Made by a program: the position numbers and the translations under genes
Assembly: GCA_051000635.1 (NCBI GenBank)
Contig: JBPCOC010000048.1
Location: 4,558 to 68,557 of the forward strand
DNA from: Sphingomicrobium sp.
GTDB taxonomy: Bacteria; Pseudomonadota; Alphaproteobacteria; Sphingomonadales; Sphingomonadaceae
Length of the DNA: 64,000 nt
Direction: 5' to 3'
Shown here: piece after piece, positions 22,648 to 48,009 of the stretch
Layout: every line of letters begins with the position of its first letter
How positions within the stretch are numbered: position 1 is the stretch's first letter
Notes under the pieces: model-generated
What the model was told of the DNA's origin: nothing
Databases searched by the model: none
What the model saw: the letters and a program-made list of their open reading frames with translations, nothing else

Positions 22648-22679
22648 CTAGTGTCCGCTTTGGGTGGAAAGCGGACATT
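22648..22679 (+). repeat. GTCCGC/GCGGAC palindrome E1
   Basis: CTAGTGTCCGCTTTGGGTGGAAAGCGGACATT; 11/12-bp stem with a GGGTGG loop; 4 nt after the dapE stop. Confidence 0.85.
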
Positions 22680-22791
22680 CAATTTCCAATCGTCGAGCTG
22701 ATACAAGCCTCTAGACTCTGGGATTAACTCGGCAGAGGATAATTCCTGTTTGATCGAGTCGCGGTGAATCAAACCTTGCGCTGGGGGGCGA

Positions 22792-22968
22792 ATGGCGGAC
22801 ATTGACTATCTGCGTAATCGGGCTCGTGCCGAACGCCTCGCAGCGTGCAACTCCTCCGGGTCGATCGTGCGGTTGCGCCACCTCGAGTTTGCCGAAGCTT
22901 ATGAATTTCGCGTCCGTGAGATGGAATGCAGAGGTTCGTCGTTCAGCGATGCCCCTGAACCGGCTTAA
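22792..22968 (+). CDS. Small hypothetical protein (58 aa), Y-x-R-x-RA-x-x-ER family
   Basis: Manual translation MADIDYLRNRARAERLAACNSSGSIVRLRHLEFAEAYEFRVREMECRGSSFSDAPEPA; clearly similar to the ORFs at 24041 and 46717. Confidence 0.7.
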   Translation: MADIDYLRNRARAERLAACNSSGSIVRLRHLEFAEAYEFRVREMECRGSSFSDAPEPA

Positions 22969-23019
22969 CAGACGCAAAGGACTGCGAAGCCAAGTTTAGG
23001 CGTGGCCTCAACCATCTCG

Positions 23020-23052
23020 TAACGTCCGGAATGGGTGGAAAGCGGACATTAG
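23020..23052 (+). repeat. GTCCGC/GCGGAC palindrome E2
   Basis: TAACGTCCGGAATGGGTGGAAAGCGGACATTAG. Confidence 0.85.
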
Positions 23053-23211
23053 CGCCGGTCCCTGCCCTGATCGTCAAGACTGTCAGTGGTGCGAACCGCG
23101 TCGCCACAGGTTCGGTGAAAATCTAATCGCTGCCTGGACGAACATTGCACCTGCCTCGCGCCCCCGTTCGTTCTGCCCCGACGCGAGCTTTGCGTAGGAG
23201 GAGGCCGAAAA

Positions 23212-23808
23212 ATGAATGAGACCCTGTTGATTGTCGTGGCGGTTGTCGCCGTTCTCGCCGTCGCTGGCTGGTGGTTTTACCAGCGGCGCCAGTCGGAGCA
23301 CCTGCGGTCCCGCTTCGGCAGCGAATATGAGCATGAGGTCGAGGAAAAGGGGAGCCGGCGAAAGGCCGAAGCCGAGCTGGCGGATCGGGAAAAACGAGTG
23401 AAGAAGCTGGACATTCGGCCGCTAGAGCCGTCGGCCCGCCGGGGTTTCATAGAGCGCTGGAAGGAAGTCCAGGCGCGGTTCGTAGACGACCCGCCAGCGG
23501 CGGTTGGCGAGGCTGATGATCTGCTCGGCGAGGTGATGCGCACTCGGGGCTATCCGGTCGGCGACTTCGAGCATAGCGCCGGCGATATTTCAGTCGATCA
23601 CCCGCAGGTCGTGAAGCATTACCGCGCAGGTCACGACATCGCCGTGAGGCACGAGCGCGGCGAGGCCAGCACCGAAGAGTTGCGCCAGGCGATGATTCAT
23701 TACCGGGCGCTGTTTGATGAGCTGGTCGAAGATGAAGGTGCGGAGGGTCGCGATAAGCAGGAGACGGCTACCGAGTCCCCCTCACCCGACCGGCGGAAGC
23801 GGTCCTAA
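23212..23808 (+). CDS. Hypothetical membrane-anchored protein (198 aa)
   Basis: Strong SD (AGGAGG); N-terminal TM helix followed by a charged helical domain. Confidence 0.8.
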   Translation: MNETLLIVVAVVAVLAVAGWWFYQRRQSEHLRSRFGSEYEHEVEEKGSRRKAEAELADREKRVKKLDIRPLEPSARRGFIERWKEVQARFVDDPPAAVGEADDLLGEVMRTRGYPVGDFEHSAGDISVDHPQVVKHYRAGHDIAVRHERGEASTEELRQAMIHYRALFDELVEDEGAEGRDKQETATESPSPDRRKRS

Positions 23809-23812
23809 GCCG

Positions 23813-23843
23813 CTAGTGTCCAGAATGGGCTGGAAATCGACGC
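23813..23843 (+). repeat. Degenerate palindrome E3
   Basis: CTAGTGTCCAGAATGGGCTGGAAATCGACGC; same CTAGTGTCC start as E1 and the same 4-nt offset from a TAA stop. Confidence 0.55.
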
Positions 23844-24040
23844 CGGGCCCGCCCCCTAAACATCACCGGTAGGGGGAACGCGGCGTTAACGCCCGGCGGC
23901 GGTTTTTGTGGGGCAACATGCGGGCTTCGGACTCGGTGCTGTAACGAAAGTAAGTTATCCACAGTCATCGCCGTGGGTCATCAAGCGAGGCGGCGACTGA
24001 GAGACCCACGCGCTCCCCGCTTGATATAGGAGTTGGGCAT

Positions 24041-24268
24041 ATGTCCCCTGATGATACCAGCTACTATCGGCAACGCGCAGTTGAGGAGCGAACGAGAGCG
24101 CTTACGGCTGAGTGCGAGGACGTTCGGGAGATCCACGAGGAGCTGGCACGGCTATACGACGCGCTCGTCTTGCAGGACGAGTTGCGGCCGACGATTCGGA
24201 CAATCTTCGGCTTCGGGAAGCTTCGATCGGCTTCGGCACCTGAGAAACTGACTGGATCAATGGCTTAG
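24041..24268 (+). CDS. Small hypothetical protein (75 aa), Y-x-R-x-RA-x-x-ER family
   Basis: AGGAG SD; MSPDDTSYYRQRAVEERTRAL...VREIHEELARLYD. Confidence 0.72.
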   Translation: MSPDDTSYYRQRAVEERTRALTAECEDVREIHEELARLYDALVLQDELRPTIRTIFGFGKLRSASAPEKLTGSMA

Positions 24269-24355
24269 TCTTCAGGATGGTGGTGCCGCCACACAAGCAC
24301 GGAGAGGTACTCGAAACGTAAGCGGTTCCGCCGCTTCTTCGGCAAAGACGGGTCG

Positions 24356-24389
24356 CTAATGTCCGATTTGGGTCGAAAGCGGACGCTAG
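24356..24389 (+). repeat. GTCCGC/GCGGAC palindrome E4
   Basis: CTAATGTCCGATTTGGGTCGAAAGCGGACGCTAG. Confidence 0.85.
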
Positions 24390-24399
24390 CGTGGGCGCG

Positions 24400-26082
24400 T
24401 CAGGCGACCGATTGGGCCTCGCCGCCTTCGTGGCTAACCAGGGCGCGAAATTCCTGCTCCGACATCGGCTCGCCGAACACGAAGCCCTGAACCGTATCGC
24501 AGCCCATCGCCCGAAGGATGTCGGCCTGCGCGCTGTTCTCGACCGCCTCGGCGACGATTTCGCAGCCGACGCCCTTGATCAACTGAACGACGGCCTGGAC
24601 GATCACCCGCGCCTTTTCGGAATCTTCGATTTCCGCGATCAGCGATGGGTCGAGCTTAACCCTGTCGAGCGGCATCGAGCGCAGCCGCGAGAGGTTGGAA
24701 TAACCGGTGCCGAAGTCGTCGATCGCGATTTTGGCGCCGTCCTCGCGAAGCAATGCGATCTCCTCAAGCACCGGTTCGCTCGCCTTCATCGCCGCGCTCT
24801 CGGTGAACTCGAGCTCGACTAGCGACAGCGGCACCTCCTGGTCGGCAAAAGCCTGGCGCAGCCTGGCGAAGAAATCGGCCCGGTCGAGCTGCCTCGGGCT
24901 GACGTTGAACGCGATTCGATGCGCAATCCCGTCGCGGTGCCATGCCCCGAGCATCAGCGCGACCTCGCCAATGACCCATTCTCCGATCTCGGCGACCAGG
25001 CCGGTTCGCTCGGCCACCGGGATGAAGGTTTCAGGCATACGCAACCCGTCGCGCGGGTGGTTCCAGCGCAACAGTGCTTCGGCTCCAACGATTTCTTCGG
25101 TTGCCAGGCTCAGCTGCGGCTGCAGCGCCAGCTGGAATTCGCCACGCTGCACCGCCGCCGTCAGCGCTTTTTCTGTCTCCGCTTTCGAGTGGTGATCGGC
25201 GGAGAGCTCGTCATTGAAAAGGCAATATTGGCCACCGCCGCGCGATTTTGCGTCGTACATCGCGATGTCGGCTGCTCGCATCAGCGATTCGACGCTGGTT
25301 CCATGGTCGGGGCTGACCGAAACACCGATCGAAGCTCCGATGTCGACGCTATGGCCGTAAAGCTCGAACGGCTCCGACACCGCAAGCGCGATTCGCCGAG
25401 CGACGCGTTCGACATCCTCGACGGACTGAACCTGCGGGAAGAAAATTGTGAATTCGTCGCCGGCGAGGCGGGCGAGCAGCGGCCGCCGCGCAACGCTGTC
25501 GCTCAAGTCTGCAGTCACGACCACCCGAAGCCTGTTCGCCACCATGATCAGTAGCTGGTCGCCGCGAGCGTGGCCGAGGCTGTCGTTGACTCCCTTGAAG
25601 CGGTCGAGGTCGACGAACAGCATCGCAGCCCTCGCCCCCGTCGGAATATCCCCCAGAAGCTTGTCCGCTTCGGACCGGAAGTGAAGCCGGTTGGGAAGCG
25701 ATGTCACCGGGTCGTACATTCCAAGAGCATGGGCGTTTTCGATGGAGGAGCGCACTTCAGCGAACAAAGTGTCGATCGCTGCGGCGACCTTGGGCATGAC
25801 TTTTCGGACGATGGGCGGCGGCGGGGAGACGAGGTCTCCGTCTTCGACAGCAAGCAGGCGATCGCCGAGCGCCGCCAGCGCGCGGGCGTTTTCGCTGTTC
25901 GGGCGCTCCGAAGCTATATAGCTGATCAGCAAGCAAAAAGTGCCAGCAGTGATGGCCGCCAGGATCTTCCCGTCGAGCTCGGTGATGTACAGTAGCGCGC
26001 TCAGCGAAAAGATGAACGAGGCCGCTCCAGCCGCGCACGAGAGAATGGCGTTGCTGATCTTCTGGGCCGTGCCTTCTTGCAT
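24400..26082 (-). CDS. GGDEF-EAL protein (putative c-di-GMP phosphodiesterase/cyclase)
   Basis: Two N-terminal TM segments; DPVTSLPNR, DLDRFKGVND and RLAGDEF; EALLRW and DDFGTGYS. Confidence 0.92.
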   Translation of the reverse strand: MQEGTAQKISNAILSCAAGAASFIFSLSALLYITELDGKILAAITAGTFCLLISYIASERPNSENARALAALGDRLLAVEDGDLVSPPPPIVRKVMPKVAAAIDTLFAEVRSSIENAHALGMYDPVTSLPNRLHFRSEADKLLGDIPTGARAAMLFVDLDRFKGVNDSLGHARGDQLLIMVANRLRVVVTADLSDSVARRPLLARLAGDEFTIFFPQVQSVEDVERVARRIALAVSEPFELYGHSVDIGASIGVSVSPDHGTSVESLMRAADIAMYDAKSRGGGQYCLFNDELSADHHSKAETEKALTAAVQRGEFQLALQPQLSLATEEIVGAEALLRWNHPRDGLRMPETFIPVAERTGLVAEIGEWVIGEVALMLGAWHRDGIAHRIAFNVSPRQLDRADFFARLRQAFADQEVPLSLVELEFTESAAMKASEPVLEEIALLREDGAKIAIDDFGTGYSNLSRLRSMPLDRVKLDPSLIAEIEDSEKARVIVQAVVQLIKGVGCEIVAEAVENSAQADILRAMGCDTVQGFVFGEPMSEQEFRALVSHEGGEAQSVA

Positions 26083-26144
26083 CGGTGGTTTGCGCCCCGT
26101 CCGACGGTCCGATCCGTCTGAATTCCCCGGTTAAGCAGACAGGG

Positions 26145-26681
26145 TTAAGAAAGGGTGGCTTTTGAGCGATTTCGTCGCAAAATAATATAGAGGCTTCCGC
26201 CCCCGCCGTGACGTCCGTGCGCGCCTCGTACAGCGGCAATTCTGGGCGCGTGCCGCGAAGCCGTCAGCCAATCGTGCACAGCCGCTCGGATCCTGCCTCG
26301 CTGGACCGGAGGCTCGCCCCGTCTGGCATGGCCGGTGATTAGAAGCAGCGTTCGATCTCCGGCCTCGACTGCACGTTCGATGCCCCGGTCGATCGCGCTC
26401 CATGCCTGGTCGAGATTGAGACCGTGCAGATCGAGCACCCGGTCAGGCTCGATCGTGCCCGTGCGAAGCCGGCGGTCCCAGGTCGAATCCAGCGTCCCGG
26501 CAGAAGCAGCCGGAGCGGGAATGGGAGCTGGAGACGGTCTAGCCGAAGGTCGCGCCTCGGATCGGCGCTCGTGAGCCGGCGGGGTCACGGCCGGGGCGGT
26601 CAGCGGGTCGCGGGAGAGCGGACGGATGGTCGCGGCAACGCGCGCCCACAGCTTCTCCTCGTCAGGGTCGAGCGAGCGCAC
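26145..26681 (-). CDS. Smr/MutS2 domain protein
   Basis: LDLHGL, LLITG and HGGGGSLYIIL. Confidence 0.88.
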   Translation of the reverse strand: MRSLDPDEEKLWARVAATIRPLSRDPLTAPAVTPPAHERRSEARPSARPSPAPIPAPAASAGTLDSTWDRRLRTGTIEPDRVLDLHGLNLDQAWSAIDRGIERAVEAGDRTLLLITGHARRGEPPVQRGRIRAAVHDWLTASRHAPRIAAVRGAHGRHGGGGSLYIILRRNRSKATLS

Positions 26682-27843
26682 GCGCCGCCGCGCCCCTGGG
26701 AAGGAGGATCAGGGCCTGGCCGGAAGCCGCCATCCCGCCGGCGATCCGCCGCGCTTCGGGGCCGGCGCCCCAGAACGTGTCGAGCCGGTTGGCGCCCTTG
26801 ATCGCCCCGCCGGTGTCCTGCGCAACCCACAGCCCCCAGGCCTCGGGTCGGTCGGACGCAAGAAATACCGGTGCTCCAAGCGGGATGAAATTCGGATCGG
26901 CGGCGACGGTCGCGTAGGGAGTGACCGGAAGGCCCATCGCTCCGAGCGGTCCGGGACCGGTCAGCGGCTTGAAGAAGATGTAGGACGGGTTCGCCCGCAT
27001 CAGCTCGACCGCCTGGCCGGGGTTGGCGCGCATCCACGCCATGATCGCCTGCATCGATGTGCCGCCGGACGGCAGGACTCCCCGCTCCCTCAGCAACCGC
27101 CCGATGGCGACATATTCGCGGCCGTTCTGGTTGTCGTAGCCGATGCGGGTGACGGTCCCGTCGGGGAAGCGGAGACGGCCCGAGCCCTGGATGTGAAGGA
27201 AGAACAGCTCGACCGGATCGGCGGCCCAGGCGATCTCGAGCCCCTTGCCGGCAAGCGCGCCCTGCTCGATTTCCGCCCGGGAGTAATAATAGACGCACTG
27301 CCCGTTCTCGTCGATCCGGCCGCGGCCGGTCCGTCCGTCGGGAAGTGCGCAGCGGGTAAGATCCGGCGGAGTTCTATAGATCGGCACATGCCCCGGCGCC
27401 GGCACACGCGAACCGGCGATCTCCGGCTCGAAATAGCCGGTTGCGAACGCCTTTCCGTCACCCACTCGAACCCAGTCGAAGCTGTTGCGGAAGAATTCGG
27501 AAGCTCCGCCTGGCGGAACAGTTGCGGCCTGGGCGCAAACGCCGTTCCAGTCGGCGGGGTTCGTCAATCCGGAGCGGTCGGTGCGCTTGACGACCGAACG
27601 GCAGCTGATCCGGAACGCTGTCAGCGCCTCGGCGGCATCCCTCTCGTGAAGAATCGCCGGCGGCGAGAGGCTTATTCCGGCCTGGACCGCATTGGCCGGC
27701 GGCGGCGGCTCGGGCCGAGGCAGTGGCTGGACCGGCGGCTCAACTGGCGGAAGCGGCGGCTGCGGCGGCTGGACTGGCCTGCTTACGCAGGCGGAAAGCA
27801 ACAGAAGTGAGGCGAGGGCTAACCCTCTCGACCAGCCCTTCAC
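26662..27843 (-). CDS. mltA: Membrane-bound lytic murein transglycosylase A
   Basis: Lipobox LSAC; ATGYFEP, FFLHIQGSG, NPSYIFF, AQDTGGAIKG and LDTFWG. Confidence 0.93.
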   Translation of the reverse strand: MKGWSRGLALASLLLLSACVSRPVQPPQPPLPPVEPPVQPLPRPEPPPPANAVQAGISLSPPAILHERDAAEALTAFRISCRSVVKRTDRSGLTNPADWNGVCAQAATVPPGGASEFFRNSFDWVRVGDGKAFATGYFEPEIAGSRVPAPGHVPIYRTPPDLTRCALPDGRTGRGRIDENGQCVYYYSRAEIEQGALAGKGLEIAWAADPVELFFLHIQGSGRLRFPDGTVTRIGYDNQNGREYVAIGRLLRERGVLPSGGTSMQAIMAWMRANPGQAVELMRANPSYIFFKPLTGPGPLGAMGLPVTPYATVAADPNFIPLGAPVFLASDRPEAWGLWVAQDTGGAIKGANRLDTFWGAGPEARRIAGGMAASGQALILLPRGAAARALARP

Positions 27844-28493
27844 TCTTCCTCGTCAGTCTCGACAAGAAGCCAATTGGGGTCGCGCGCGGCGATGTCGCGA
27901 CGAAAAGTCCACAAATCGCGGGTCTGGACGGCATCGCTCATCGACCCCGCGACCACCTCGCCGGCCTTGTTTTTGGTGATGGCGGCAATGTCGGCCTCGA
28001 ACCTGACCGTAACGAACGCCACGGTCTGCTCGAGCGAGGCGGCCGAGATCAGTGCCTGCTCGATGTTCACCAGGCGATTGTCGAGAATCAACTGCTCTTT
28101 CTCGCGCTGCTCGAGGGCCGAGGCGAACGCCTTATAGACATTGTCGTCGACGTGCGGGCGAAGTGTGTCGAGATCGCCCTTCCAAAACGCTTCCAAAATC
28201 ATCCGGTAGGCGGCCTGGGCGCCTTCGAGGAACCGCGCGACATCGAACGTCGGGTCGGCGGCGAGCAGCGCCCGAACGCCTGGCCCCGCCGTCGGCAGAT
28301 AGGCGAGTTCGGAACCGTCGGTTGCCGGCTGGGGCGTCGGCGTCGATGGGGCGGGACGAGTATCGACTCGCGCATCGGGGTCGGCCGGCTTGAGGATCGG
28401 CTGCTGCTCATGTCCAGTGCGCTCGCCGAGCACGCTGTACAGGCGTAGGCCGATAAAGAGCGCCACGAGCGCGAGGATGATGATGACTGTCAA
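27840..28493 (-). CDS. Tim44/TimA family protein
   Basis: RLYSVLGERTG, FLEGAQAAYRMILEAF and WTFRRD...PNWLL. Confidence 0.88.
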   Translation of the reverse strand: MTVIIILALVALFIGLRLYSVLGERTGHEQQPILKPADPDARVDTRPAPSTPTPQPATDGSELAYLPTAGPGVRALLAADPTFDVARFLEGAQAAYRMILEAFWKGDLDTLRPHVDDNVYKAFASALEQREKEQLILDNRLVNIEQALISAASLEQTVAFVTVRFEADIAAITKNKAGEVVAGSMSDAVQTRDLWTFRRDIAARDPNWLLVETDEEE

Positions 28494-28671
28494 CGGTTGC
28501 GTTCCAGGTTCAATGTCTCAACGAACATAATGCGCGGATGGGTCAGATTCAAAGCTGCTTCTCGCTGTTGGCCGCCATTGCACGCCATTTGCCCGACTGC
28601 TAGGCGCCAACCCGAAAACGCGCCCGGCTCCTTCCGGCTCCACAACCACCCCGATTGAGGCAAGACGAGAC

Positions 28672-29226
28672 ATGGCTGAAGAGGATTCCACCCGCGCCGG
28701 AAACGGCTCCGACGGCAACGGCAGCGAAGCGCAGGCCGCGACGCTCGCGCAGTATATCAAGGACCTGTCGGTCGAAAGCCCGAGCGCTCCGCAGGTGTTC
28801 CAATGGCAGGAAGAGACGTCGCTGGACGTCAACTTCAATCTCAACATCGAGCGTGTGTCCGATGACGTCAACGAGGTCATGCTCAAGATCGAGGTCAGGG
28901 CGCATTCGCAAAGCGGCGTCCAGTTCCTCGTCGACCTGAGCTTCGCCGGACTGTTCGGGCTTCGCAACTTCCCGGAAGAGGCCGTCGCTCCCTTCCTCTT
29001 GATCGAGGCACCGCGGCTTCTGTTCCCGTTCGCCCGCCAGATCGTCTGCGAGTCGGTCCAGAACATGGGCTTCCCGCCCCTGCTTCTCGAGCCGATCGAT
29101 TTCGCTTCCGCCTACATGGCGCAGGTCGAGGCAGCGCAGCAGCAGCAGCAGAAAAAGGGCGAAGGAGCCGCGATCGGCGATTCTGAGGCCGAAAAGCCGG
29201 CCGGGAAAGGCCCCGGCGAGGGCTGA
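28672..29226 (+). CDS. secB: Protein-export chaperone SecB
   Basis: QYIKDLSVESP and PRLLFPFARQI...PPLLLEPIDF. Confidence 0.94.
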   Translation: MAEEDSTRAGNGSDGNGSEAQAATLAQYIKDLSVESPSAPQVFQWQEETSLDVNFNLNIERVSDDVNEVMLKIEVRAHSQSGVQFLVDLSFAGLFGLRNFPEEAVAPFLLIEAPRLLFPFARQIVCESVQNMGFPPLLLEPIDFASAYMAQVEAAQQQQQKKGEGAAIGDSEAEKPAGKGPGEG

Positions 29227-29255
29227 CCGGCCGCGCCCGAAACGGATAGGCGCGC

Positions 29256-31834: not shown

Positions 31835-31851
31835 CGCGACACTGGAGAAGC

Positions 31852-33249: not shown

Positions 33250-33313
33250 TGGCCCGCGCCTCCCTCAGCTAGCCCCTGGCTCCAAGACAAAAGGAACCCG
33301 ATGCCCGCGATCC

Positions 33314-33527
33314 GAGTCGCGCGCTCGACGGTCTCTTTCTCTCTTGCCCCCGGCGCGGATTCGCGCCTCGGAATGCTGTTTTTGCGAGTCTCGGCGGCAG
33401 CTTTCAAGCCTGATTTTTCACGAAAGTGAAATAAATCGGGTTGACACTCAAAATTGCCGGAAACCCGCCGGAACGGCAGAATTCTGCCAATCTTGGCAAA
33501 ATTAACTTTTCGGTAATCCCGCGAATC
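33314..33527 (-). promoter_or_regulatory. dnaA upstream control region with four GANTC sites and a CtrA-like site
   Basis: GANTC at 33314, 33358, 33386 and 33523; TTAA-N7-GTAA at 33502-33516; AT-richer than the flanks. Confidence 0.45.
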
Positions 33528-38894: not shown

Positions 38895-38904
38895 ATTTAA
38901 AACT

Positions 38905-38970
38905 TCGTTCGTATCGAGCGGAGCGAAGCGCAGTCGAGATACGTCCCTCGACTTCGCTCGGGACGAACGA
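38905..38970. repeat. REP-like palindromic repeat, copy C
   Basis: TCGTTCGTATCGAGCG...GTCGAGATACGTCCCTCGACTTCGCTCGGGACGAACGA; ends 2 nt before the next ATG. Confidence 0.85.
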
Positions 38971-38972
38971 AA

Positions 38973-39728: not shown

Positions 39729-42196
39729 GCCTTCTTCACCTTCTTCCGCCGCCCCTTCTTCTTCGCCGGTCCCTTGGCCGCCTTTGCATCGATCCATTCC
39801 ACCGCCTTGTCCAGGGTCACTGACTTGGGCTCGGTGTCCTTGGGTATAGTCGCGTGGGTCGTCCCGTCGGTGACATAGGGGCCGTAGCGGCCGGCCATCA
39901 CCTTGATCTCTTTCCCGCTGCCGGGGTGATTGCCGAAAACCGCGATCGGCTCGCGGGCGGCGCCGCGCCGGCCGCCCGCAGCCGCTGCGGCCTCGGCAAG
40001 CTTGACCACGGCGGCGTTCATTCCGGTTTCGAACACCTCCGCGGTCAAGCCGAGCTTTGCATATTTGCCGTCGTGGGCGAGATACGGCCCATAACGGCCG
40101 ATCGACGCAATGATCGGCTTTCCGGTCTCCGGATGGGGGCCGATTTCGCGCGGGAGCGAGAGCAGTTTCTCGGCCATTTCCGTAGTGACATCATCGGCCG
40201 GAATGTCCTTTGGGATCGACGAGCGCTTGCCGTCCCGCTCGAGATAGGGACCGAACCGCCCGGTCTTCAGCTCGATTCCGTTGCCGAGGTCCTGCGGCCC
40301 TTCGATCGCCTGCGGGTCGCCACCGGCCTGGCCGAACGGCTGCGTGTGCCGGCACTCGGGATAGTTCGAGCAGGCGATGAACGCCCCGAATCGTCCACCT
40401 CGAAGCGACAGCCGCCCGTCGCCGCAGGCCGGGCACTGGCGCGGGTCGGTTCCAGCCTCGCGCGGCGGGTAGAGCCACGGCTCCAGGAACTCGTCGATGG
40501 CAGCGGTGATCTCCGAGGGCTTCTGGTCCATCACCTCGTCCGCTTTCGGCCGGAAGTCGTGCCAGAATTCGTCGAGCAGGCGGTTCCAGCCGAGCCGGCC
40601 GCCGGAGACGTCGTCGAGCTCCTCCTCGAGCTCGGCGGTGTAATCGTAGCTGACGTATTTCTCGAAGAACCGCTCGAGAAATGCCGTTACCAGCCGACCG
40701 CTCTCCTCGGGAACGAAACGGGCCTTCTCGACCCGGACATATTCGCGGTCCTTCAGCGTCTGAATGATCGACGCATAAGTCGACGGGCGGCCGATTCCGA
40801 GCTCCTCGAGCCGCTTCACCAGGCTCGCTTCCGAAAAGCGCGGCGGCGGCTGGGTGAAATGCTGGGCAGCCTCGACGCCAGTCTTGGCGGGAGCGTCGCT
40901 CTCGCGAAGCAGCGGCATCCGGTCGCCGTCCTCGTCCTCGCCCTTTTCGTCCCGGCCCTCCTCGTAAAGCGCGAGATAGCCGGGAAAGAGCATTGTCTGG
41001 CCGCTGGCTCGGAGCACCGCCCGGCCGGTGCCGTCGGAGAGTTCGACGGTCGTCCGCTCGAGCCGCGCCGAGGCCATCTGGCTCGCAAGCGCCCGGTTGT
41101 GGACGAGTTCGTAGAGCCGGGCGTGGTCGCCGGTCGCGGCGCGGGTGCGCGTGAAATCGGTCGGCCTGATCGCTTCGTGCGCTTCTTGCGCATTCTTGAC
41201 CTTGCTCGTGTAGTGGCGCGGCCGGTCGGGCACGTAGCCGGCATTGTAGCGGTCGACGATCGCCCGGCGGGCATCGCTGATCGCTTCGGCGGCCATGTCG
41301 ACGCCATCGGTGCGCATGTAGGTGATGTGCCCGCCCTCATAGAGGCCCTGCGCGACCCGCATCGTGTGGCTTGCGGAAAAGCCGAGCTTTCGAGCGGCCT
41401 CTTGCTGCAGTGTCGAGGTCGTGAACGGTGGCGGAGGATTCTTGGTGAACGGCTTGGTTTCGACCGAGGAGACGGTGAACCGCCCTTCCTCCACCGCGGC
41501 CTCGGCCCGCTCGGCATCGGCCCGGTTGCCGATCGTGAGCCGCTCAATTTTCTCGCCCTCGAACTGCACCAGCCGGGCGGTGAAGCTTTGGCCGTCGGCT
41601 TCGAAGCTTGCCGTCACCGACCAATATTCCTGCGGCCGGAAGACCTCGATCTCGCGTTCGCGATCGACGATCAGCCGAAGCGCGACCGACTGCACCCGCC
41701 CTGCCGACTTCGCTCCCGGCAGCTTGCGCCACAGGATCGGCGAGAGCGTGAAGCCGACGAGATAGTCGAGCGCCCGGCGCGCCTTGTAGGCGTCGATCAA
41801 ATCCTCATCGAGCTTGCGCGGGTGCGCCATCGCCTCGGTCACCGCCGATTTGGTGATCGCATTGAACGCGACCCGCTCGACGTTGGGCGGGAGCGCCTTG
41901 CGCTTCTTCAGCACCTCGGCGAGATGCCAGCTGATCGCCTCACCCTCCCGGTCCGGGTCGGTGGCGAGGATCAGCGTGTCCGCGTTCTTCGCCTCGTCGG
42001 TGATCGCCTTCAATTGGCGGGTCTTGTCCGGCGAGACCTGCCATTCCATCGCGAAGTCCTGCTCGGGATCGACCGAGCCGTCTTTTGCGGGAAGGTCACG
42101 GACATGGCCGTAGGATGCCAGGACTCGATGCCCCGGCCCCAGATATTGTTCGATTGTTTTCGCCTTAGCGGGCGATTCGACGACGACGAGCTTCAA
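39725..42196 (-). CDS. topA: DNA topoisomerase I
   Basis: LVVVESPAKAK, ATDPDREGEAI, SAGRVQS, ITYMRTD and GIGRPSTY. Confidence 0.97.
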   Translation of the reverse strand: MKLVVVESPAKAKTIEQYLGPGHRVLASYGHVRDLPAKDGSVDPEQDFAMEWQVSPDKTRQLKAITDEAKNADTLILATDPDREGEAISWHLAEVLKKRKALPPNVERVAFNAITKSAVTEAMAHPRKLDEDLIDAYKARRALDYLVGFTLSPILWRKLPGAKSAGRVQSVALRLIVDREREIEVFRPQEYWSVTASFEADGQSFTARLVQFEGEKIERLTIGNRADAERAEAAVEEGRFTVSSVETKPFTKNPPPPFTTSTLQQEAARKLGFSASHTMRVAQGLYEGGHITYMRTDGVDMAAEAISDARRAIVDRYNAGYVPDRPRHYTSKVKNAQEAHEAIRPTDFTRTRAATGDHARLYELVHNRALASQMASARLERTTVELSDGTGRAVLRASGQTMLFPGYLALYEEGRDEKGEDEDGDRMPLLRESDAPAKTGVEAAQHFTQPPPRFSEASLVKRLEELGIGRPSTYASIIQTLKDREYVRVEKARFVPEESGRLVTAFLERFFEKYVSYDYTAELEEELDDVSGGRLGWNRLLDEFWHDFRPKADEVMDQKPSEITAAIDEFLEPWLYPPREAGTDPRQCPACGDGRLSLRGGRFGAFIACSNYPECRHTQPFGQAGGDPQAIEGPQDLGNGIELKTGRFGPYLERDGKRSSIPKDIPADDVTTEMAEKLLSLPREIGPHPETGKPIIASIGRYGPYLAHDGKYAKLGLTAEVFETGMNAAVVKLAEAAAAAGGRRGAAREPIAVFGNHPGSGKEIKVMAGRYGPYVTDGTTHATIPKDTEPKSVTLDKAVEWIDAKAAKGPAKKKGRRKKVKKA

Positions 42197-42327
42197 GCGG
42201 GCAGGTTCCTATACGTGTACGCGCGATGGTGGAGCCTTGAGATTCTCGGCGTCAACAACCCTCGACAATGGCAGCGGGTTCAGTGATTTACGAGGTGCCA
42301 AATCCGTTCTTGCACGTTTGGAGTGGC

Positions 42328-42927
42328 ATGACGGACCCGAGTTACGACGAATGCCTGGTCGACGCGGAGCTGAAGGCGCGCGCCGCATATTCCGAGCCGC
42401 ACCGAGACTATCACGATCATCGTCACCTCGACGAATGCCTGGATCACGTCGATGGCATCCGCGACCTCGACGACCGCGGCCGGCGGCTGCTCAAATGGGC
42501 GATTCTCTGGCACGACGCAGTCTACGAGCCCGGCCAGCGCGACAATGAGGAGCGAAGCGCCGAGCTTGCACTGTCGGACCTTTCGGGCTGCGGGGTCGCC
42601 CAAGAGGATTCAGCGGAGGTCGCCCGCCTCATTCGGCTGACCGAGCGCCACCGGGCGGAGCCGGACGACCGCCTCGGCGCGCTGATGGTGTCGATCGACC
42701 TTTCAATCCTGGGAGCCGATCCGGAACGCTATTGCGAATATTCAGCCGATGTCCGCCGCGAATATGGCCATGTTCCCGAGCAGCTGTGGCGAACCGGTCG
42801 CTCCCTTGTCCTTAAGCGCTTGCTTACGGCCGATCCGCTTTACCCGGACCCGGACTTCCGCGAGAAATTCGAGGCGCGGGCGCGGAATAATATCGAACAG
42901 GAGATTAAGGCGCTGGGCGAAGACTGA
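42328..42927 (+). CDS. Predicted HD-superfamily phosphohydrolase
   Basis: YSEPHRDYHDHRHL, AILWHDAVY, DLSILG and VRREY pattern. Confidence 0.8.
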   Translation: MTDPSYDECLVDAELKARAAYSEPHRDYHDHRHLDECLDHVDGIRDLDDRGRRLLKWAILWHDAVYEPGQRDNEERSAELALSDLSGCGVAQEDSAEVARLIRLTERHRAEPDDRLGALMVSIDLSILGADPERYCEYSADVRREYGHVPEQLWRTGRSLVLKRLLTADPLYPDPDFREKFEARARNNIEQEIKALGED

Positions 42928-43987
42928 CCCGTCCTCCGGCATGGCGGTCGAGCCGTCCGGCGAGGTCGAGCTCGAGAAGCGCCATCTGCACCGCTCCGCT
43001 CGGCGCGCCCGACAGCCGGATGATCTCGTCGACCGGCACCGGCGATGGCCCGAGCAGGGACTCCACTTTCTCCACGCCTTCGCCGTCATATTGATCGGGC
43101 CGAGGCTGGTAACCGGCTTCGGGCGAAGCGACGCGCGGCTTCATCGGCTGAACCGCTTCGATCACGTCGGCCGCATTCTGAACCAGCGTCGCCCCGTCGC
43201 GGATCAGCTGGTTGCAGCCCCGAGCGCGCGGGTCGAGCGGCGAGCCGGGGACCGCCATTACGTCGCGCCCTGCCTCGGCCGCCAGCCGGGCGGTAATCAG
43301 CGATCCGGAGCGCGGCGCGGCTTCAACGACGATCGCTCCGAGGCTCAGTCCGGCGATGATCCGGTTGCGGTAAGGGAAGTGGCGCGCCCGAGGCTCGGTC
43401 CCCGGCGGCATTTCGGCCAGCACCAGGCCTCGCTCGAACAGCGCCTTCTGCCTGTGCTCGTTTTCCGGCGGATAGAAGACGTCGACCCCTCCGGCGACGA
43501 TGCCGATCGTGCCGCTTTCGAGCGCTCCGTCGTGAGCGGCCGAATCGATTCCCCGGGCGAGCCCGGAAACCACCACCAGCCCCTCCTGCCCGAGGTCGTG
43601 GGCCAGGCTTCGAGCGAAGCGGCATGCGGCCGCCGACGCGTTGCGGGCCCCGACCATCGCGATCGCGGAGCGGTCGAGAAGCCCGATGTCGCCTTTGGCG
43701 ATGAGCAGCGGCGGGGCGTCGTCGAGCTCGGCCAGAAGCGACGGATACAGGCCCTGGCCGAGCACCAGATAGCGCGCACCGAGCTTTTCGATCTTCTTCC
43801 GCTCGCGTTCCGCATCATCCTTGCTGTACAGCTTCGGGGGCGACCCGCCGCCGCGGCGGGCAAGGTCGGGGATCGCTTCGAGCGCCGCTTGCGCGGAGCC
43901 GAAGCGTGCGATCAGCTGGCGGTACGTGACGGGCCCGATCGAAGGCGATCGGATCAGCCGGATAGGGGCGATCAGGTCGTCGCTCAT
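42905..43987 (-). CDS. dprA: DNA-processing protein DprA
   Basis: [31 protein letters not shown] and SGSLITA. Confidence 0.95.
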
Positions 43988-44598
43988 TCGGGCTTGATCC
44001 GAGGCTCGGCGCCGGAGCGCAGGCGAGCGATGTTGGAGCGGTGCTTCCACACGATCAGAAGCGCAAAGCCGAGCAGCAGCGGAAACAGCCGGTCCACGCC
44101 CATCGCCACGGCCGCGATCGGGGCGCTGATCACTGCCGCGATCCCCGCCACCGAGGAGACCCGGACGACCAGCAGCACCGCCAGCCACACGATCGCGTAG
44201 ACCAGCGCGGCTGCCGGCCACAAAGCGATGAGGGCACCGAACAATGTCGCGACGCCCTTGCCGCCCTGGAACTTGAGCCAGACCGGGTAGAGATGCCCGA
44301 TCAACGCGCCCGCGGCCGCGGCCTGGCCGACGACCGGCGATTCGGCCATCAAAGCCTGTGCGACCCAGACCGAGGCCGCACCCTTGAGCACATCGAGCAC
44401 AAGCGTGAGCGCGGCGAGCGCCTTGCCGCCGGTTCTCAGCACGTTGGTCGCGCCGATGTTTCCGGAGCCGAACTTTCGAACGTCGCCCTTGCCGGCGATC
44501 CGGGTCACGAGCAGCCCGAACGGGATCGAACCGAGCAGGTAGCCGATCAGCAGCGCCACAAGCATTTCGGTCGTCAAGGCGTCCCCCTCGATGCGCAA
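43984..44598 (-). CDS. plsY: Glycerol-3-phosphate acyltransferase (start uncertain)
   Basis: [29 protein letters not shown]...GGKGVAT and HRSNI. Confidence 0.94.
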
Positions 44599-44638
44599 GA
44601 GTTGCAGGCGACTTCGCCGTCAGTCAAATGCGCGTGCA

Positions 44639-45430
44639 ATGAACGCGCAATCGCCCCTGCTGTTCTTCGATTCCGGAGTCGGCGGTTTGTCGGTGCTCGA
44701 ACCGACGCGCGAGCTGCTCCCCACGGCGCCGATCGTCTATGCCGCCGACAGCGCCGGCTATCCCTACGGAACTCGGAGCGAAGCCGAGATTGCTTCGCGC
44801 GTTCCCGCGCTGCTCGGCCGGCTGGTCGAACGTTTCCAGCCGCGGCTGATCGTCATCGCCTGCAACACCGCCTGCACGATCGCACTCGACCAGGTCCGCG
44901 CGGCACTCGACCTTCCGGTGGTCGGGACGGTCCCGGCGATCAAGCCGGCCGCCGAAAATACGAAAACCGGCGTCATCGGAGTGCTCGGCACAAAAGCGAC
45001 CATCCGCCAGCCCTATGTCGACGATCTCGCGACACGGTTCGCGAGCAACTGCACCGTCGTCCGCTACGGCTCGGCGGAGCTTGGCGATATCGCCGAAGCG
45101 AAGCTCGGCGGCGACCCGGTTTCGGTCGACGAGGTTCGCCGGACCGTGGCGCCGCTGTTCGAGCAGGACGGAGCAAAGAACATGGACTCTGTCGTCCTCG
45201 CCTGCACCCACTTCCCGCTGCTGCGCGACGAGCTCGACCAGGCGTTCCCCGGCCTCAGCTGGGTCGACGGCGGCCCGGGGATCGCCCGGCGAATCCGGTA
45301 CCTCACTCGCGAGCAGCCGTGGCCGGGGGAATATCCGGGCGGAATCGCCGTCTTCACTGGCGGTCCGCCGCGAAAGCCGCTTCTGAGCGCGCTGGCCGCT
45401 TACGGCCTTGGCGACGTCCAGGCGCTCTAG
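44639..45430 (+). CDS. murI: Glutamate racemase
   Basis: [21 protein letters not shown] and VLACTHFP. Confidence 0.95.
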
Positions 45431-45495
45431 TTGCGAGTCGTTCTCATTGGAAATCCGCCGCATCGGACGGTAAAGGCGCGCAAGAGAGCGCATCG

Positions 45496-46710
45496 GTGGA
45501 TTACGACAGCATCTTCAGATCGGCCATTAGCCGCCTTCACAGCGAGGGCCGGTACCGCGTATTCATCGACATTCTGCGCACCAAGGGCTCCTACCCGAAC
45601 GCGCAATGCTTCGCCGGGCACAACGGGCCGAAACCGATCACGGTCTGGTGCTCGAACGACTATCTCGGGATGGGCCAGCACCCGTCGGTGATCGAGGCGA
45701 TGGAAACCGCGCTCCACGAGGTCGGCGCGGGATCGGGCGGAACCCGCAACATCAGCGGCAACACCCATTACCACATGCAGCTGGAGGCCGAGTTGGCATC
45801 GCTGCACGGCAAGGACGGCGCGCTTTTGTTCACGTCGGGCTATGTGTCGAACGAGGCGGCGCTCTCGACGATCGGCAAGCTTCTTCCCGACTGCGTGATC
45901 TTCTCCGACGAGCTCAACCACGCCTCGATGATCGCCGGGATCAAGAGCTCGGGCTGCGAAAAGCGCGTGTTTCGCCACAACGATATCGAGCACCTCGAGC
46001 AGCTGCTTCGCGATTGTGACCCGGACTCGCCCAAGCTGATTGCGTTCGAGAGCGTCTATTCGATGGACGGCGATATCGCTCCGATCGCCGAATTCTGCGA
46101 CCTCGCCGACCGATATGGCGCCCTGACCTATCTCGACGAGGTCCATGCGGTCGGAATGTACGGCGACCATGGCGGCGGAATCTCCGAGCGCGACGGCCTG
46201 GCACAGCGGATTACGATTATCGAGGGCACGCTCGGCAAGGCGTGCGGAGTGATGGGCGGCTATATCGCCGCGAGCCGGACGATCATCGACTGCATCCGAA
46301 GCTATGCGCCCGGCTTCATCTTCACCACCTCACTGTCGCCGGTGCTCGTTGCCGGAGCGCTGGCCAGCGTTCGGCACCTGAAGCAATCCAGGGCCGAGCG
46401 CGAGGCTCAGCAGCATTGCGCGGCAATGCTCAAGAAGAAGTTCGCCGCCGCCCGGCTTCCGGTGCTTCCGAGCGTCACCCACATCGTCCCGCTTCTGGTC
46501 GGCTGCCCGGTCAGGGCGAAAAGGATCAGCGACATTCTCCTGGCCGAATACGGGCTCTACGTTCAGCCGATCAATTTCCCGACCGTCCCGCGCGGCACAG
46601 AGCGGCTGCGCTTCACCCCCGGCCCGTGCCACACCGCCGAGATGATGGACGAGCTGACTGACGCACTGGTCGAGATCTGGAGCCGGCTGGAGCTGAAGCT
46701 CGCCGCCTGA
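45496..46710 (+). CDS. hemA: 5-aminolevulinate synthase
   Basis: [40 protein letters not shown] and GTLGKA. Confidence 0.96.
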
Positions 46711-46716
46711 GCCGTT

Positions 46717-46923
46717 ATGGAGAGCGATACTGAGTATTTTCGGAGGCGGGCCTCTGAGGAACGCACGGCCGCACTTCAGGCGCGAGATACGCGAGTGCGG
46801 AAGGCGCATCTGGAGATGGCGGAACGATACGAAGATCTCGTCCGAGCTATTGCGGGACATGAGCAGGCTCTCGGCCTGCGATCAATCGCGTCGCCTCAAG
46901 CAGCTCCGGGATACTGGCGATAA
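46717..46923 (+). CDS. Small hypothetical protein (68 aa), Y-x-R-x-RA-x-x-ER family
   Basis: MESDTEYFRRRASEERTAAL...VRKAHLEMAERYE; 6 nt after the hemA stop. Confidence 0.72.
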   Translation: MESDTEYFRRRASEERTAALQARDTRVRKAHLEMAERYEDLVRAIAGHEQALGLRSIASPQAAPGYWR

Positions 46924-46954
46924 AGAAGACTCGGCTGACGGTGCTGCCGTTAGC

Positions 46955-46988
46955 CTAATGTTGGCCGTGGGTGGAAAGCGGACACTAG
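46955..46988 (+). repeat. GTCCGC/GCGGAC palindrome E5 (left arm diverged)
   Basis: CTAATGTTGGCCGTGGGTGGAAAGCGGACACTAG. Confidence 0.8.
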
Positions 46989-47011
46989 CGCTTGGCGCCC
47001 TGCAGCTCGGG

Positions 47012-47638
47012 ATGGGGAGCCATGTAAAGATTCGTGAGAAGCAGGTCCTGCTTCAGGAGCTCCAGCACCGTGTCGCTAACAGCCTGCAGATCATTGCAAG
47101 CGTGTTGATGCAAAGCGCCAAGCGCGTTCAGTCCGAGGAGACCCGTCTCCATCTTCACGACGCCCACAGCCGGGTCATGTCGATCGCGATGCTTCAAAAG
47201 CAGCTGGCGGTCACGCAGCTTAAATCCGTTGAGCTACAGCCTTATTTCGAGGACCTGTGCCGAAGCATTTCCGCTTCCATGATTGACGATCCACAACGGA
47301 TCGCTCTCGAGACGATCGTGGATGATACGAGCACAAACTCTGATGTGTCGGTCAGCATGGGCCTGATCGTCACGGAATTGGTGATCAACGCGATCAAGCA
47401 TGCGTTCCCGGATCGGGCCGCTGGCGGCAAGATCATTGTGTCTTTTGCGGCAGACGAGGGCGGCTGGCTGCTGTCCGTGTCGGATGATGGCGCAGGAATA
47501 CCGGTCGGCGAGGAAGAGGGAAAGCCGGGTCTTGGAACAGGGATCGTCGAGGCCTTGTCCAGGCAACTTGAGGCGAGTGTGACCGTGCTCAACGCAAATC
47601 CGGGGACTCGCGTGGAAGTTCGACACGACCAAAGCTGA
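47012..47638 (+). CDS. Sensorless HisKA_2-type histidine kinase (possibly a truncated remnant)
   Basis: ELQHRVANSLQ H-box, ELVINAIKHAF, DDGAG and GLGTGIV. No PAS/GAF/TM region upstream; start uncertain (46958 or 47012). Confidence 0.75.
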   Translation: MGSHVKIREKQVLLQELQHRVANSLQIIASVLMQSAKRVQSEETRLHLHDAHSRVMSIAMLQKQLAVTQLKSVELQPYFEDLCRSISASMIDDPQRIALETIVDDTSTNSDVSVSMGLIVTELVINAIKHAFPDRAAGGKIIVSFAADEGGWLLSVSDDGAGIPVGEEEGKPGLGTGIVEALSRQLEASVTVLNANPGTRVEVRHDQS

Positions 47639-47660
47639 GGCAATCTACCGCTCGCCTACG

Positions 47661-47691
47661 TTATGTCTGCTTTCGGTCGGAGGCAGACATT
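47661..47691 (+). repeat. Palindrome E6 (compensated variant)
   Basis: TTATGTCTGCTTTCGGTCGGAGGCAGACATT; GTCTGC/GCAGAC replaces GTCCGC/GCGGAC. Confidence 0.7.
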
Positions 47692-47720
47692 CTGTACCCA
47701 CAATCTGGCGATTATGGGCC

Positions 47721-47906
47721 TTAGGGCTTGGAGCCCTCTGAGCTGGACTTGCGTAGCTGCATAATCTGTGACCGTATCTGGGGCCCCTTGAGGTGCTCGA
47801 TGACCCGCGAATACCCTTCACGGCTCAGTGTCCTTTGCAGCTCCTCAATCGATCGGCATTCAGGCGCAAGTAGAAACGCCCTTTCAATGATACTGACCCC
47901 CTGCAT
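47721..47906 (-). CDS. Small hypothetical protein (61 aa)
   Basis: MQGVSIIERAFLLAPECRSIEELQRTLSREGYSRVIEHLKGPQIRSQI; sits between E6 and E7; start could be 47960. Confidence 0.6.
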   Translation of the reverse strand: MQGVSIIERAFLLAPECRSIEELQRTLSREGYSRVIEHLKGPQIRSQIMQLRKSSSEGSKP

Positions 47907-47980
47907 AGATCGATGATCCAATTGATGGCTCGTTCGAGCAACAGGAATTTGCCCGCTCAATGTTTTTTGCGACCGGCTGC

Positions 47981-48009
47981 AATGTCCGCAATGGGTGGAA
48001 AGCGGACGT
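47981..48009 (+). repeat. GTCCGC/GCGGAC palindrome E7
   Basis: AATGTCCGCAATGGGTGGAAAGCGGACGT. Confidence 0.85.

Follow-up and report, generated by a model that had tools for sequence, protein, structure and literature searches.

A polar 34-bp palindromic repeat bounding accessory gene modules, a candidate junction element of gene-cassette exchange

The DNA window analysed here (64,000 nt) contains seven copies of a palindromic repeat (E1–E7) in two islands of accessory genes. Island 1 lies between a dapE-like M20 peptidase gene (21534..22643, + strand; Pfam) and a GGDEF-EAL gene (24400..26082, - strand), both of which are core genes. Its left edge is E1 (22648..22681, +), which starts 4 nt past the dapE stop codon and is a G-loop, TT-form copy with a full stem (PWM score 53 bits; fold -10.4 kcal/mol, z -4.3). 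The first cargo gene is a 58-aa ORF without a Pfam family (22793..22969, +), and it is followed by E2 (23019..23052, +), a G-loop copy with the degenerate left arm ACGTCCGGAA that scored 50 bits and folded no better than shuffled sequences (z -0.7). The second cargo gene (23212..23808, +) encodes a protein of 198 aa whose family is large and conserved but has no Pfam entry; elsewhere the protein was found in three different genomic contexts, one of them again flanked by elements. The 3' end of this cassette is a decayed doublet (23793..23846, +; 14–16 bits, no fold) composed of the remnant right arm GCGGAAGCGGTCCTAAGCCG and the degenerate copy E3 (23813-23846, +) as its second half, and this doublet is kept with the homologous cassette in L180. 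The right edge of the island is E4 (24356..24389, +), a C-loop copy (53 bits; -10.4 kcal/mol, z -3.7) located 10 nt before the stop codon of the convergent GGDEF-EAL gene.

Island 2 lies between the core genes for a class I/II aminotransferase (hemA-like; 45496..46710, +; Pfam) and rpiB (48829..49275, +). E5 (46955..46988, +), a G-loop copy with a degenerate left arm (38 bits, no fold), marks the start of a sensorless HWE/HisKA_2 kinase cassette, whose gene (46958..47638, +) encodes a 226-aa histidine kinase with HisKA_2/HWE and HATPase_c domains (Pfam). In other metagenome contigs, an 86%-identical copy of this kinase was again enclosed between elements. Downstream are E6 (47660..47693, +), a C-loop-like copy with the compensated pair T12-A29 (26 bits), and E7 (47979..48012, +), a G-loop, AA-form copy (42 bits; -7.6 kcal/mol, z -2.95). 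Island 1 was missing from 29 relatives, in 23 of which dapE and the EAL gene were directly convergent or abutting. The site of island 2 was empty in 11 relatives (aminotransferase–rpiB distance 42-193 nt), and in genome G049 it held a small G...C unit. Both islands are lineage-specific insertions, each separating a pair of core genes that are direct neighbours in relatives.

A PWM scan identified 163 copies of the element genome-wide, compared to 0 in a shuffled genome, and 162 of them were intergenic. The element is a polar, REP-like, 34-base palindromic repeat with the consensus CTAATGTCCGC-WWT-GGGTSG-AAA-GCGGACATTAG, in which two inverted 14-bp arms surround a 6-bp asymmetric centre. The base at S divides the copies into G-loop and C-loop forms. 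Conservation was highest in the loop TGGGTSGAAA (92-100% per column), and its GGGTSG is not palindromic, a real asymmetry. Columns 15-16 were AA (53%) or TT (43%), while their partner columns 25-26 were A in 94-96% of copies. The outer consensus is CTAAT...ATTAG, with C at column 8 in 20 and G at column 33 in 33 of the 163 copies. The CTAR/YTAG ends that the first-pass annotation had described in several window copies belong to this palindrome as its outermost 5 bp, and other lineages have GAAT/ATTC instead. No conserved or duplicated sequence was found in the flanks in any position class. A target-site duplication flanking terminal inverted repeats, as expected for a MITE of a DDE transposon, was thus not found.

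The number of exact cores ranged from 0 to 67 among congeneric species, and a core of 24-30 nt was near-identical between alpha-, beta-, and gammaproteobacteria. Among 72,556 plasmid records, the doublet occurred in only one. The host is a small-genome soil alphaproteobacterium, and the element occurs in other Proteobacteria as well.

Within the window, the 16-mer TGGGTSGAAAGCGGAC of the right arm is exact at 22661, 23032, 24369, 46968, and 47992. All five are on the + strand, and 100 shuffles gave 0 matches. The first-pass annotation had listed this 16-mer in E1, E2, E4, E5, and E7, and the five exact occurrences where none was expected bear it out. The left-arm variants also match those it listed. 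It had also taken an invariant right arm and a variable left arm to be a property of the element, which did not hold over the 163 copies, although the quoted sequences are real. Exact matches numbered 61 both for the 16-mer on the right and for its mirror on the left, and the exact arm cores GTCCGC and GCGGAC were present in 80 and 86 copies, respectively. A seed of the loop plus right arm gave 145 matches, 12 with a dead left arm, and a seed of the left arm plus loop gave 141 matches, 12 with a dead right arm. Decay is thus equal in both arms, a result that the first-pass annotation had said would refute its view; the pattern of the window is a sampling effect, and the genome-wide asymmetry is restricted to columns 15-16 and the loop GGGTSG.

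Folding of the consensus gives a 15-bp stem without interruption (-15.9 kcal/mol). Three of the seven window copies (E2, E3, E5) have no fold, and covariation was weak. The suggested covariation analysis of all genomic copies yielded 66 compensated changes versus 528 one-sided ones, and the excess of Watson-Crick cells was marginal (1387 observed versus 1362+-11 shuffled, with 32 of 2000 shuffles reaching the observed value). Mismatches showed no strand preference (G-T versus A-C, 140 versus 163). The pair GTCTGC/GCAGAC in E6 (47660-47693) is indeed compensated and folds (-6.8 kcal/mol, z -3.8), but no strong trend of this kind exists among the copies. Of the proposed selection on both sequence and hairpin, the part concerning sequence is supported by the conserved loop and core, while that concerning the hairpin is weak given the marginal covariation and unbiased mismatches. 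The absence of a U-tract was confirmed: a scan for terminators was negative at the window element sites, and only one of 163 copies had at least six T (>=6) within 10 nt after the stem. None of the copies qualifies as a canonical terminator. Since, in addition, orientation is not linked to gene strand, an intrinsic (Rho-independent) terminator was rejected, in agreement with the earlier view that these are not ordinary terminators.

The copies are organized in co-oriented arrays, such as those on contigs C14 (15 copies, all +), C3 (13, all -), and C56 (10, all +). Orientation was constant within an island and independent of gene strand. In loci of foreign genomes, 167 neighbouring pairs had the same orientation and 15 did not. 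GC skew was too weak in this genome to assign replication direction. In the closed relatives G050 and G060, orientation flipped many times between islands, indicating that it is not set replichore-wide.

The two loop forms followed a grammar. The 23 doublets in this genome were all direct with a period of 35-38 nt, and by loop type of the first and second copy they were CG (16), CC (5), and GC (0). Cargo-separated neighbours were GC (38), GG (28), CC (14), and CG (8). In 120 foreign loci, doublets were CG (18), CC (7), and GC (1), and neighbours were GC (65), GG (34), CC (24), and CG (10). The grammar was also seen in 30 metagenome contigs, and when metagenome contigs were picked by the doublet junction alone, the scored doublets all began with a C-type copy. 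In the pooled data, the left boundary of a cargo interval was G-type in 153 of 197 cases (78%, p 3e-15) and the right boundary was C-type in 126 of 197 (64%, p 1e-4). Typically, a module therefore has a G-loop copy first and a C-loop copy last, and stacking of such modules head to tail results in C=G doublets 35 nt apart.

Accessory DNA is split by co-oriented copies into short modules, usually of one gene on either strand, and the islands occupy hot spots between core genes. The cargo was very diverse, with the largest protein cluster comprising four of 205 intervals. Homologous cassettes were found in unrelated contexts, with homology stopping at the elements. There were exceptions: one of four paralogous cassettes had its cargo inverted relative to the G...C frame, and in the G000/L180 cassette pair, homology began not at the left element but ~95 nt inward of it.

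Three metagenome contigs (L213, L227, and L229) were 99.4-100% identical and differed by block swaps. The breakpoints followed column 32 in a C-type copy, preceded column 6-9 in a C-type copy, and separated columns 17 and 18 in a G-type copy. Within this assembly, four places where contigs branch or their homology ends likewise coincided with elements. These comparisons show that blocks are exchanged in natural populations with breakpoints inside the elements. Over all cases, breakpoints were at columns 17/18, 32/33, 33/34, and 39/40 and before column 9; those on the right side clustered at the stem base (32/33 and 33/34). Since no position was fixed, short-homology recombination between repeats could have produced them without a dedicated enzyme. 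Loop column 22 was linked with right-arm variants and not with left-arm variants, and in two homologous cassette pairs the left-hand elements shared their right part and differed in their left arms. An earlier suggestion that variable left arms are hybrids made by recombination in the loop is to some extent directly supported by this linkage, the cassette pairs, and the 17/18 breakpoint, but the remaining breakpoints map to the element's feet and not to the loop. A test for cross-cassette pairing, of the left arm of site i+1 with the right arm of site i, was negative.

We searched for an enzyme that might act on the element. A six-frame search of the genome (99.7% complete) gave no PF01797 match for a Y1 HUH protein (RAYT, TnpA), while the controls matched. 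The best score for an integron integrase (TIGR02249) was 78 bits versus a cut-off of 265, and the matches were Xer- or phage-type recombinases. There was no IS110 match in the genome, and no recurrent recombinase or nuclease gene was found beside the arrays in about 100 loci. The proposal that an integrase or HUH protein recognises the element as an ssDNA hairpin thus found no candidate enzyme of the Y1 HUH, integron integrase, or IS110 type in this genome. The SRM motif of Ssn nucleases, HGTCWYN(0-2)YYVSBRHN(0-5)WNVSBRGN(0-2)RNCYNB, had 32 regex matches in the genome, none overlapping an element, compared to 41 in a shuffled genome. No element lies within 3.7 kb of the ssn-like gene in this genome (contig C51:16855-17151), and three genomes with 22-36 exact cores each (G020, G050, G060) are without an Ssn homologue. 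Where ssn genes adjoin elements, they have canonical SRM hairpins of their own and resemble cargo.

We propose, with moderate confidence, that this palindrome serves a system of gene-cassette exchange as its polar, REP-like junction element. The element would be a site of DNA cutting and joining, or of strand switching. Cassettes might move by Campbell-type integration and excision of one-element circles or as G...C-ended units, which would explain the arrays as direct repeats, and single hybrid copies may have arisen from crossover within an element or from collapse of a doublet. The arms around the asymmetric centre would most likely bind a putative trans-acting protein not encoded beside the arrays, whose substrate could be either duplex DNA or the hairpin. 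A more specific version, which we offer tentatively as possible rather than probable, is that the elements are recombination sites of a previously undescribed cassette system of Sphingomonadales, Caulobacterales, and Xanthomonadales, with 34-bp lox-like G and C sites at cassette start and end, a host-encoded unlinked enzyme, and dozens of mini-arrays at core-gene hot spots. Alternatively, but in our opinion unlikely, the repeat may be a selfish mini-element, akin to a REP or MITE, that propagates itself and accumulates where tolerated, in accessory DNA and at gene ends, the cassette-like appearance being a by-product of homologous or slipped-strand recombination without machinery. Variable copy number among congeners (0 to 67 exact cores), the lack of an enzyme gene linked to arrays, the shifting breakpoints, and neutral, equal arm decay all fit such an element, and the GG:CC ratio of neighbours (62:38) equals that calculated for random collapse of 35-nt C=G doublets. 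However, independent insertions would not yield a co-orientation of 167:15 regardless of gene strand, nor the G-first, C-last polarity; target-site duplications and conserved flanks are absent, 34 nt is very short for the substrate of a DDE transposase, and the core is conserved in three proteobacterial classes.

The model of the first-pass annotation, a protein-recognised ssDNA hairpin of integrase or HUH type, is taken here to mean a folded hairpin of which one strand is read by an HUH transposase, by an integron-type integrase, or by a GIY-YIG nuclease of the Ssn type (as for IS200/IS605 LE/RE, attC, and Neisseria NTS), and is rather improbable. The consensus hairpin is stable, the loop renders the two strands distinguishable, the direct-oriented G (left) and C (right) ends resemble LE/RE hairpins, right-side breakpoints cluster at the stem base, and small nucleases with oriented hairpin repeats bracketing genes are a precedent (PMC11893778). 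Against it stand the marginal covariation and lack of strand bias among wobble mismatches, the three non-folding window copies, the genome without a Y1 HUH match or IntI, the unmatched SRM motif together with high-copy genomes without Ssn, the cargo-like ssn genes with their own SRM hairpins, and the orientation flips between islands on closed chromosomes. Very improbable is an element acting at the RNA level, that is, a hairpin without a U-tract that, like E. coli REPs, would stabilise transcripts or terminate them at the 3' ends of genes, with spread being secondary. Many copies do lie close to a stop codon, at about 20 nt or less (lower quartile of the distance 16-21 nt), the gene on the 3' side has its own 3' end toward the element in 100 of 152 cases, and convergent genes often surround copies (E1 and E4 in the window). 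Such a role is nevertheless hard to reconcile with a T-tract in only one of 163 copies, orientation set by the island and not the gene, direct doublets and G/C polarity that have no RNA rationale, the absence of Rfam matches at element sites, and copies at orthologous positions that are not conserved between species.

If the elements are true exchange sites, they show how soil sphingomonads with small genomes, and their neighbours, shuffle accessory genes one at a time with no integron, plasmid, or linked transposase involved; the two-form grammar could then help to detect such cassettes in metagenomes, and the 34-bp site would be a defined bait in a search for the enzyme. As passive repeats, they would nevertheless account for many contig breaks and for much strain-level mosaicism among these metagenome-assembled genomes.

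Among known systems, the Neisseria dRS3/NTS repeats with the SsnA nuclease (Chenal et al. 2025, PMC11893778) are likewise short oriented palindromes with tens to hundreds of copies, strongly variable between congeners. As in our case, they cluster around or bracket accessory genes between conserved genes, and the sequence is conserved rather than pairing alone. The Neisseria repeats flank 'minimal mobile elements'. Unlike them, the element described here does not match the Ssn-related motif (SRM, HGTCWY...RNCYNB), has no genome-level link to ssn, and forms strictly co-oriented arrays with two-type G/C polarity; membership of the Ssn/SRM family was rejected on the unmatched motif and the lack of gene–repeat co-occurrence. 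The attC sites of integrons are 55-140 nt long, with an unpaired spacer, extrahelical bases, and the cores RYYYAAC/GTTRRRY, and an attC cluster lacking an integrase is termed CALIN. Our arrays resemble these in having co-oriented imperfect palindromes between mostly single, very diverse genes without an integrase nearby and in having the same cassette in different contexts. They differ in the 34-nt element with a perfect stem and unconserved RYYYAAC/GTTRRRY cores, and in the dozens of small islands per genome instead of one array, with cargo on both strands and no IntI. An attC/CALIN assignment was therefore rejected by length, cores, and missing IntI, although the co-oriented single-gene layout fits.

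The element shares with REP/BIME and REPIN sequences the character of extragenic palindromes of 20-40 nt with high copy number, often just downstream of genes, and both are rearrangement sites and insertion-sequence targets. REP/BIME and REPIN sequences are mobilised by RAYT (Y1 HUH) transposases; RAYT genes are usually flanked by REPs, REPINs are inverted doublets, and BIMEs alternate in orientation. By contrast, our doublets are direct, a GTAG-type tetranucleotide and RAYT are lacking, and local co-orientation is strong; REP/RAYT membership was rejected on the absence of a Y1 HUH gene, of inverted doublets, and of alternation, while the trait of a short multicopy palindrome fits. Compared to IS200/IS605 elements, there is no TnpA, no conserved cleavage or guide sequence outside the hairpin, and no replication-strand bias; as with IS200/IS605 ends and their non-autonomous derivatives (PATEs), two similar, distinguishable, direct-oriented hairpins bound a cargo unit (here G left and C right). 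In contrast to lox, FRT, and dif sites, no cognate recombinase is known for the element and the crossover position does not appear to be fixed, and the pdif modules of Acinetobacter plasmids alternate in orientation, whereas ours are co-oriented. In its layout, with an asymmetric centre of 6 bp between inverted arms of 14 bp and 34 bp in total, the element matches loxP, and its modules are bounded by sites as with lox/FRT/dif and pdif.

The 34-nt palindromic elements form a polar REP-like family that marks the exchange of single-gene modules, and they probably mediate this exchange as well. A position-weight scan of the assembly (2.36 Mb in 74 contigs, with the window at C10:4558-68557) identified 163 copies in total, and the same threshold yielded none in the shuffled genome. 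The window contains seven of them, each on the + strand, with E1 to E4 at 22648, 23019, 23813 and 24356, and E5 to E7 at 46955, 47660 and 47979. The window has five occurrences of the 16-mer TGGGTSGAAAGCGGAC, always on the + strand, and shuffled sequence has none. Across the genome, all 163 copies but one are intergenic. Columns 4-37 read, in consensus, C T A R T G T C Y G C W W T G G G T S G A A A G C G G A C A Y T A G, and the CTAR and YTAG ends therefore make up the outermost 5 bp of a single palindrome. At loop column 22, 84 copies have G (G-type) and 75 have C (C-type), and this state is associated with columns 27 and 29 of the right arm, with no link to the left arm. A literature search using the element sequence returned no relevant paper.

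The first-pass annotation had described an invariant right arm and a variable left arm. The sequences it quoted around the 16-mer copies are real and were re-read in the window as quoted, but the generalisation is wrong, as the two arms are alike across genomic copies. Exact GTCCGC was found in 80 copies and exact GCGGAC in 86, 61 copies matched the right 16-mer exactly and 61 its left mirror, and seeding with the loop plus right arm gave 145 matches compared to 141 with the left arm plus loop, with a dead partner arm in 12 of each. The genuine asymmetry lies in the loop, which is not palindromic, and at columns 15-16, where 53% of copies have AA and 43% have TT opposite an invariant A in the partner columns; the AA/TT state was only weakly related to position in the array. 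The compensated pairing noted in one window copy does not belong to any strong trend. Covariation over all copies was marginal, with 1387 Watson-Crick cells versus 1362 ± 11 when the right-arm letters were shuffled, a value reached in 32 of 2000 shuffles. Compensated arm changes numbered 66 versus 528 one-sided ones. G-T and A-C mismatches were equally common (140 vs 163), and thus no strand was favoured.

Copies within one contig were co-oriented, whatever strand the intervening genes used (15 copies in C14, 10 in C56 and 8 in C15, all +; 13 copies in C3, all -). Among 120 loci from other genomes, orientation was the same in 167 cases and opposite in 15. A replication-strand bias was rejected, since orientation flips island by island in two closed relatives (G050 and G060) and is therefore not set by replichore; the GC skew of this genome is too weak for a replication-strand test. 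Read along the element's own strand, doublets of two tandem copies (period 35-38 nt) were C=G in 16 cases, C=C in five and G=C in none, while neighbours separated by cargo were GC in 38 cases, GG in 28, CC in 14 and CG in 8, the CG gaps being mostly large. The 120 foreign loci gave doublets of CG (18), CC (7) and GC (1), and neighbours of GC (65), GG (34), CC (24) and CG (10). In 30 metagenome contigs picked by the doublet junction alone, every scored doublet opened with a C-type member. When cargo intervals were pooled, the left boundary was G-type in 153/197 and the right boundary C-type in 126/197, and the two states were statistically independent. Integron-style pairing of the left arm of one site with the right arm of the previous one gave no signal.

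As the gene order in relatives shows, the two islands are insertions at hot spots. The two genes that flank island 1 (E1-E4) here, dapE and the GGDEF-EAL gene, converge in the closest relative, where their stop codons overlap and the element is absent. This convergent arrangement was found in 23 of 29 relatives, mostly with the gene ends 3-52 nt apart, and the remaining six had other inserts between the two genes. In relatives, the two stop codons have in common a 4-nt palindrome, TTAA or CTAG (L014 1498-1501 and other dapE loci), and island 1 of this genome is inserted at the shared-stop point. An empty-site variant of the dapE 3' end was looked for in metagenomes, without a match. In 11 relatives, 42-193 nt separate the hemA-like aminotransferase gene from rpiB, the two genes that flank island 2 (E5-E7); at this site the relative G049 carries a single short ORF within a small G...C unit, and G050 has an element copy ~0.8 kb from rpiB. 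Neither target-site duplications nor conserved flanks were found around the elements.

The cargo between neighbouring elements was diverse. The largest protein cluster in 205 intervals had four members, and no recurrent protein was found within or beside arrays (205 intervals and ~100 loci). Cargo in the window comprises a 58-aa ORF (22793-22969), a 198-aa protein (23212-23808) and a sensorless HWE kinase. The 58-aa ORF and another small ORF of ~68 aa (46718-46925), located in or beside the two islands, are alike in charged, helical character, and neither has a Pfam family. The 198-aa protein is a member of a large conserved family and was found elsewhere in three unrelated contexts. In one of the loci from elsewhere (L180), the gene again lies within an element array, and homology with this genome begins ~95 nt past the left element, extends across both the gene and a decayed doublet, and ends where E3 ends. 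The protein has thousands of soil-metagenome homologues at 70-93% identity, with a different genomic context in every contig examined; it has no Pfam family and is labelled "ZipA-like" in some sources. Four amidohydrolase-like paralogues (C50, C34, C11 and C24), diverged to 68-74% nucleotide identity, each lie in an interval of 1.08-1.12 kb with G...C boundaries, and one of these genes is inverted with respect to its elements. In further homologous cassette pairs, the left element is shared over its right part but not over its left arm.

In the metagenome contigs L213, L227 and L229, shared blocks were 99.4-100% identical and neighbouring blocks differed. Switches follow column 32 of a C-type copy with a rare T27, precede column 6-9 in the C copy of a C=G doublet, and fall between column 17 and column 18 in a G-type copy. 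Within this genome, C5 continues as C14 or C15, with divergence between columns 33 and 34 of a C-type copy. The homology of C4 and C34 stops between columns 32 and 33, that of C12 and C67 stops after column 39, and C25 and C57 have common sequence from about column 9 rightwards. Where the breakpoint seems to lie differs from case to case, in part because most of the core is identical in any two copies.

Since switches and homology ends lie at elements, the elements are where modules are joined. We favour a cassette-junction role, to which we give about even credence, over passive selfish repeats, which we consider unlikely. A strictly single-stranded hairpin site, the kind of site proposed in the first-pass annotation, is more doubtful still: the consensus folds as DNA at -15.9 kcal/mol, but the mismatches favour no strand, the covariation is marginal, and E2, E3 and E5 fold no better than shuffles. 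An RNA element is quite improbable; the earlier remark that the window copies lack a U-tract held genome-wide, with a T-tract in only 1/163 copies, the terminator scan was empty at element sites, and no Rfam family matched there.

Congeneric genomes had between 0 and 67 exact cores each. Among the isolates with the element are Sphingomonas daechungensis, S. rhizophila and Lysobacter soli. Full palindromes were also found in other Sphingomonadales, in Brevundimonas, Caulobacter and Phenylobacterium, and in isolates of Lysobacter, Noviluteimonas, Dyella and Telluria, and the doublet was present in only one plasmid of PLSDB. Copies in Xanthomonadales were almost all C-type (L054 Lysobacter soli, L109 Dyella, L076 Noviluteimonas), and those of L. 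soli occur as inverted pairs 260-490 nt apart, an arrangement unlike that in sphingomonads.

This genome also carries a multi-copy IS5-family insertion sequence that causes many contig breaks (ends of C3, C27, C30, C45, C53, C54, C69 and C73), with a transposase C-terminus of ...RYDKLAANFLGNIHLAAAIMWWL and insertion-sequence ends of ...GGCCCTAG. It inserts at CTAG/CTAA, once at the left foot of a 34-nt element (start of C27). Rfam matches in the window were one 6S RNA and three tRNA genes (10208-10361, 12920-12993, 15124-15205 and 58422-58494), which are unrelated to the elements.

Searches of this genome for Y1 HUH transposases (RAYT/IS200), the integron integrase IntI and IS110 gave no match. 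Two serine and nine tyrosine recombinase genes are present, several of them in or near arrays, and a small serine recombinase gene lies 50 nt from a terminal C-type copy on C50. At C50:43508-48418, straight after the terminal C-type copy of an array, there are genes for a small serine recombinase, a tyrosine recombinase-like protein (369 aa) and an integrase (406 aa). The Ssn nuclease was rejected as the cognate enzyme, given the mismatch to its SRM motif, a single ssn-like gene in this genome that no element flanks, the lack of co-occurrence across genomes, with high-copy genomes devoid of ssn, and the canonical SRM hairpins that element-adjacent ssn genes in G049 and G001 carry of their own. 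The single-domain GIY-YIG (Ssn-like) gene of this genome (98 aa, C51:16855-17151, - strand) has CCCTGC/GCAGGG-type hairpins upstream; loci of relatives (L164-L168) were covered as well. Its paralogues in G049 and G001 form SRM-ssn-SRM units between 34-nt element copies, and the ssn genes there look like cargo.

By the tests that define membership, the element family belongs to none of attC, REP/RAYT and SRM/Ssn. The closest published precedent for the element is the Ssn family, small ssDNA nucleases of the GIY-YIG type whose associated repeats are oriented hairpins (PMC11893778).
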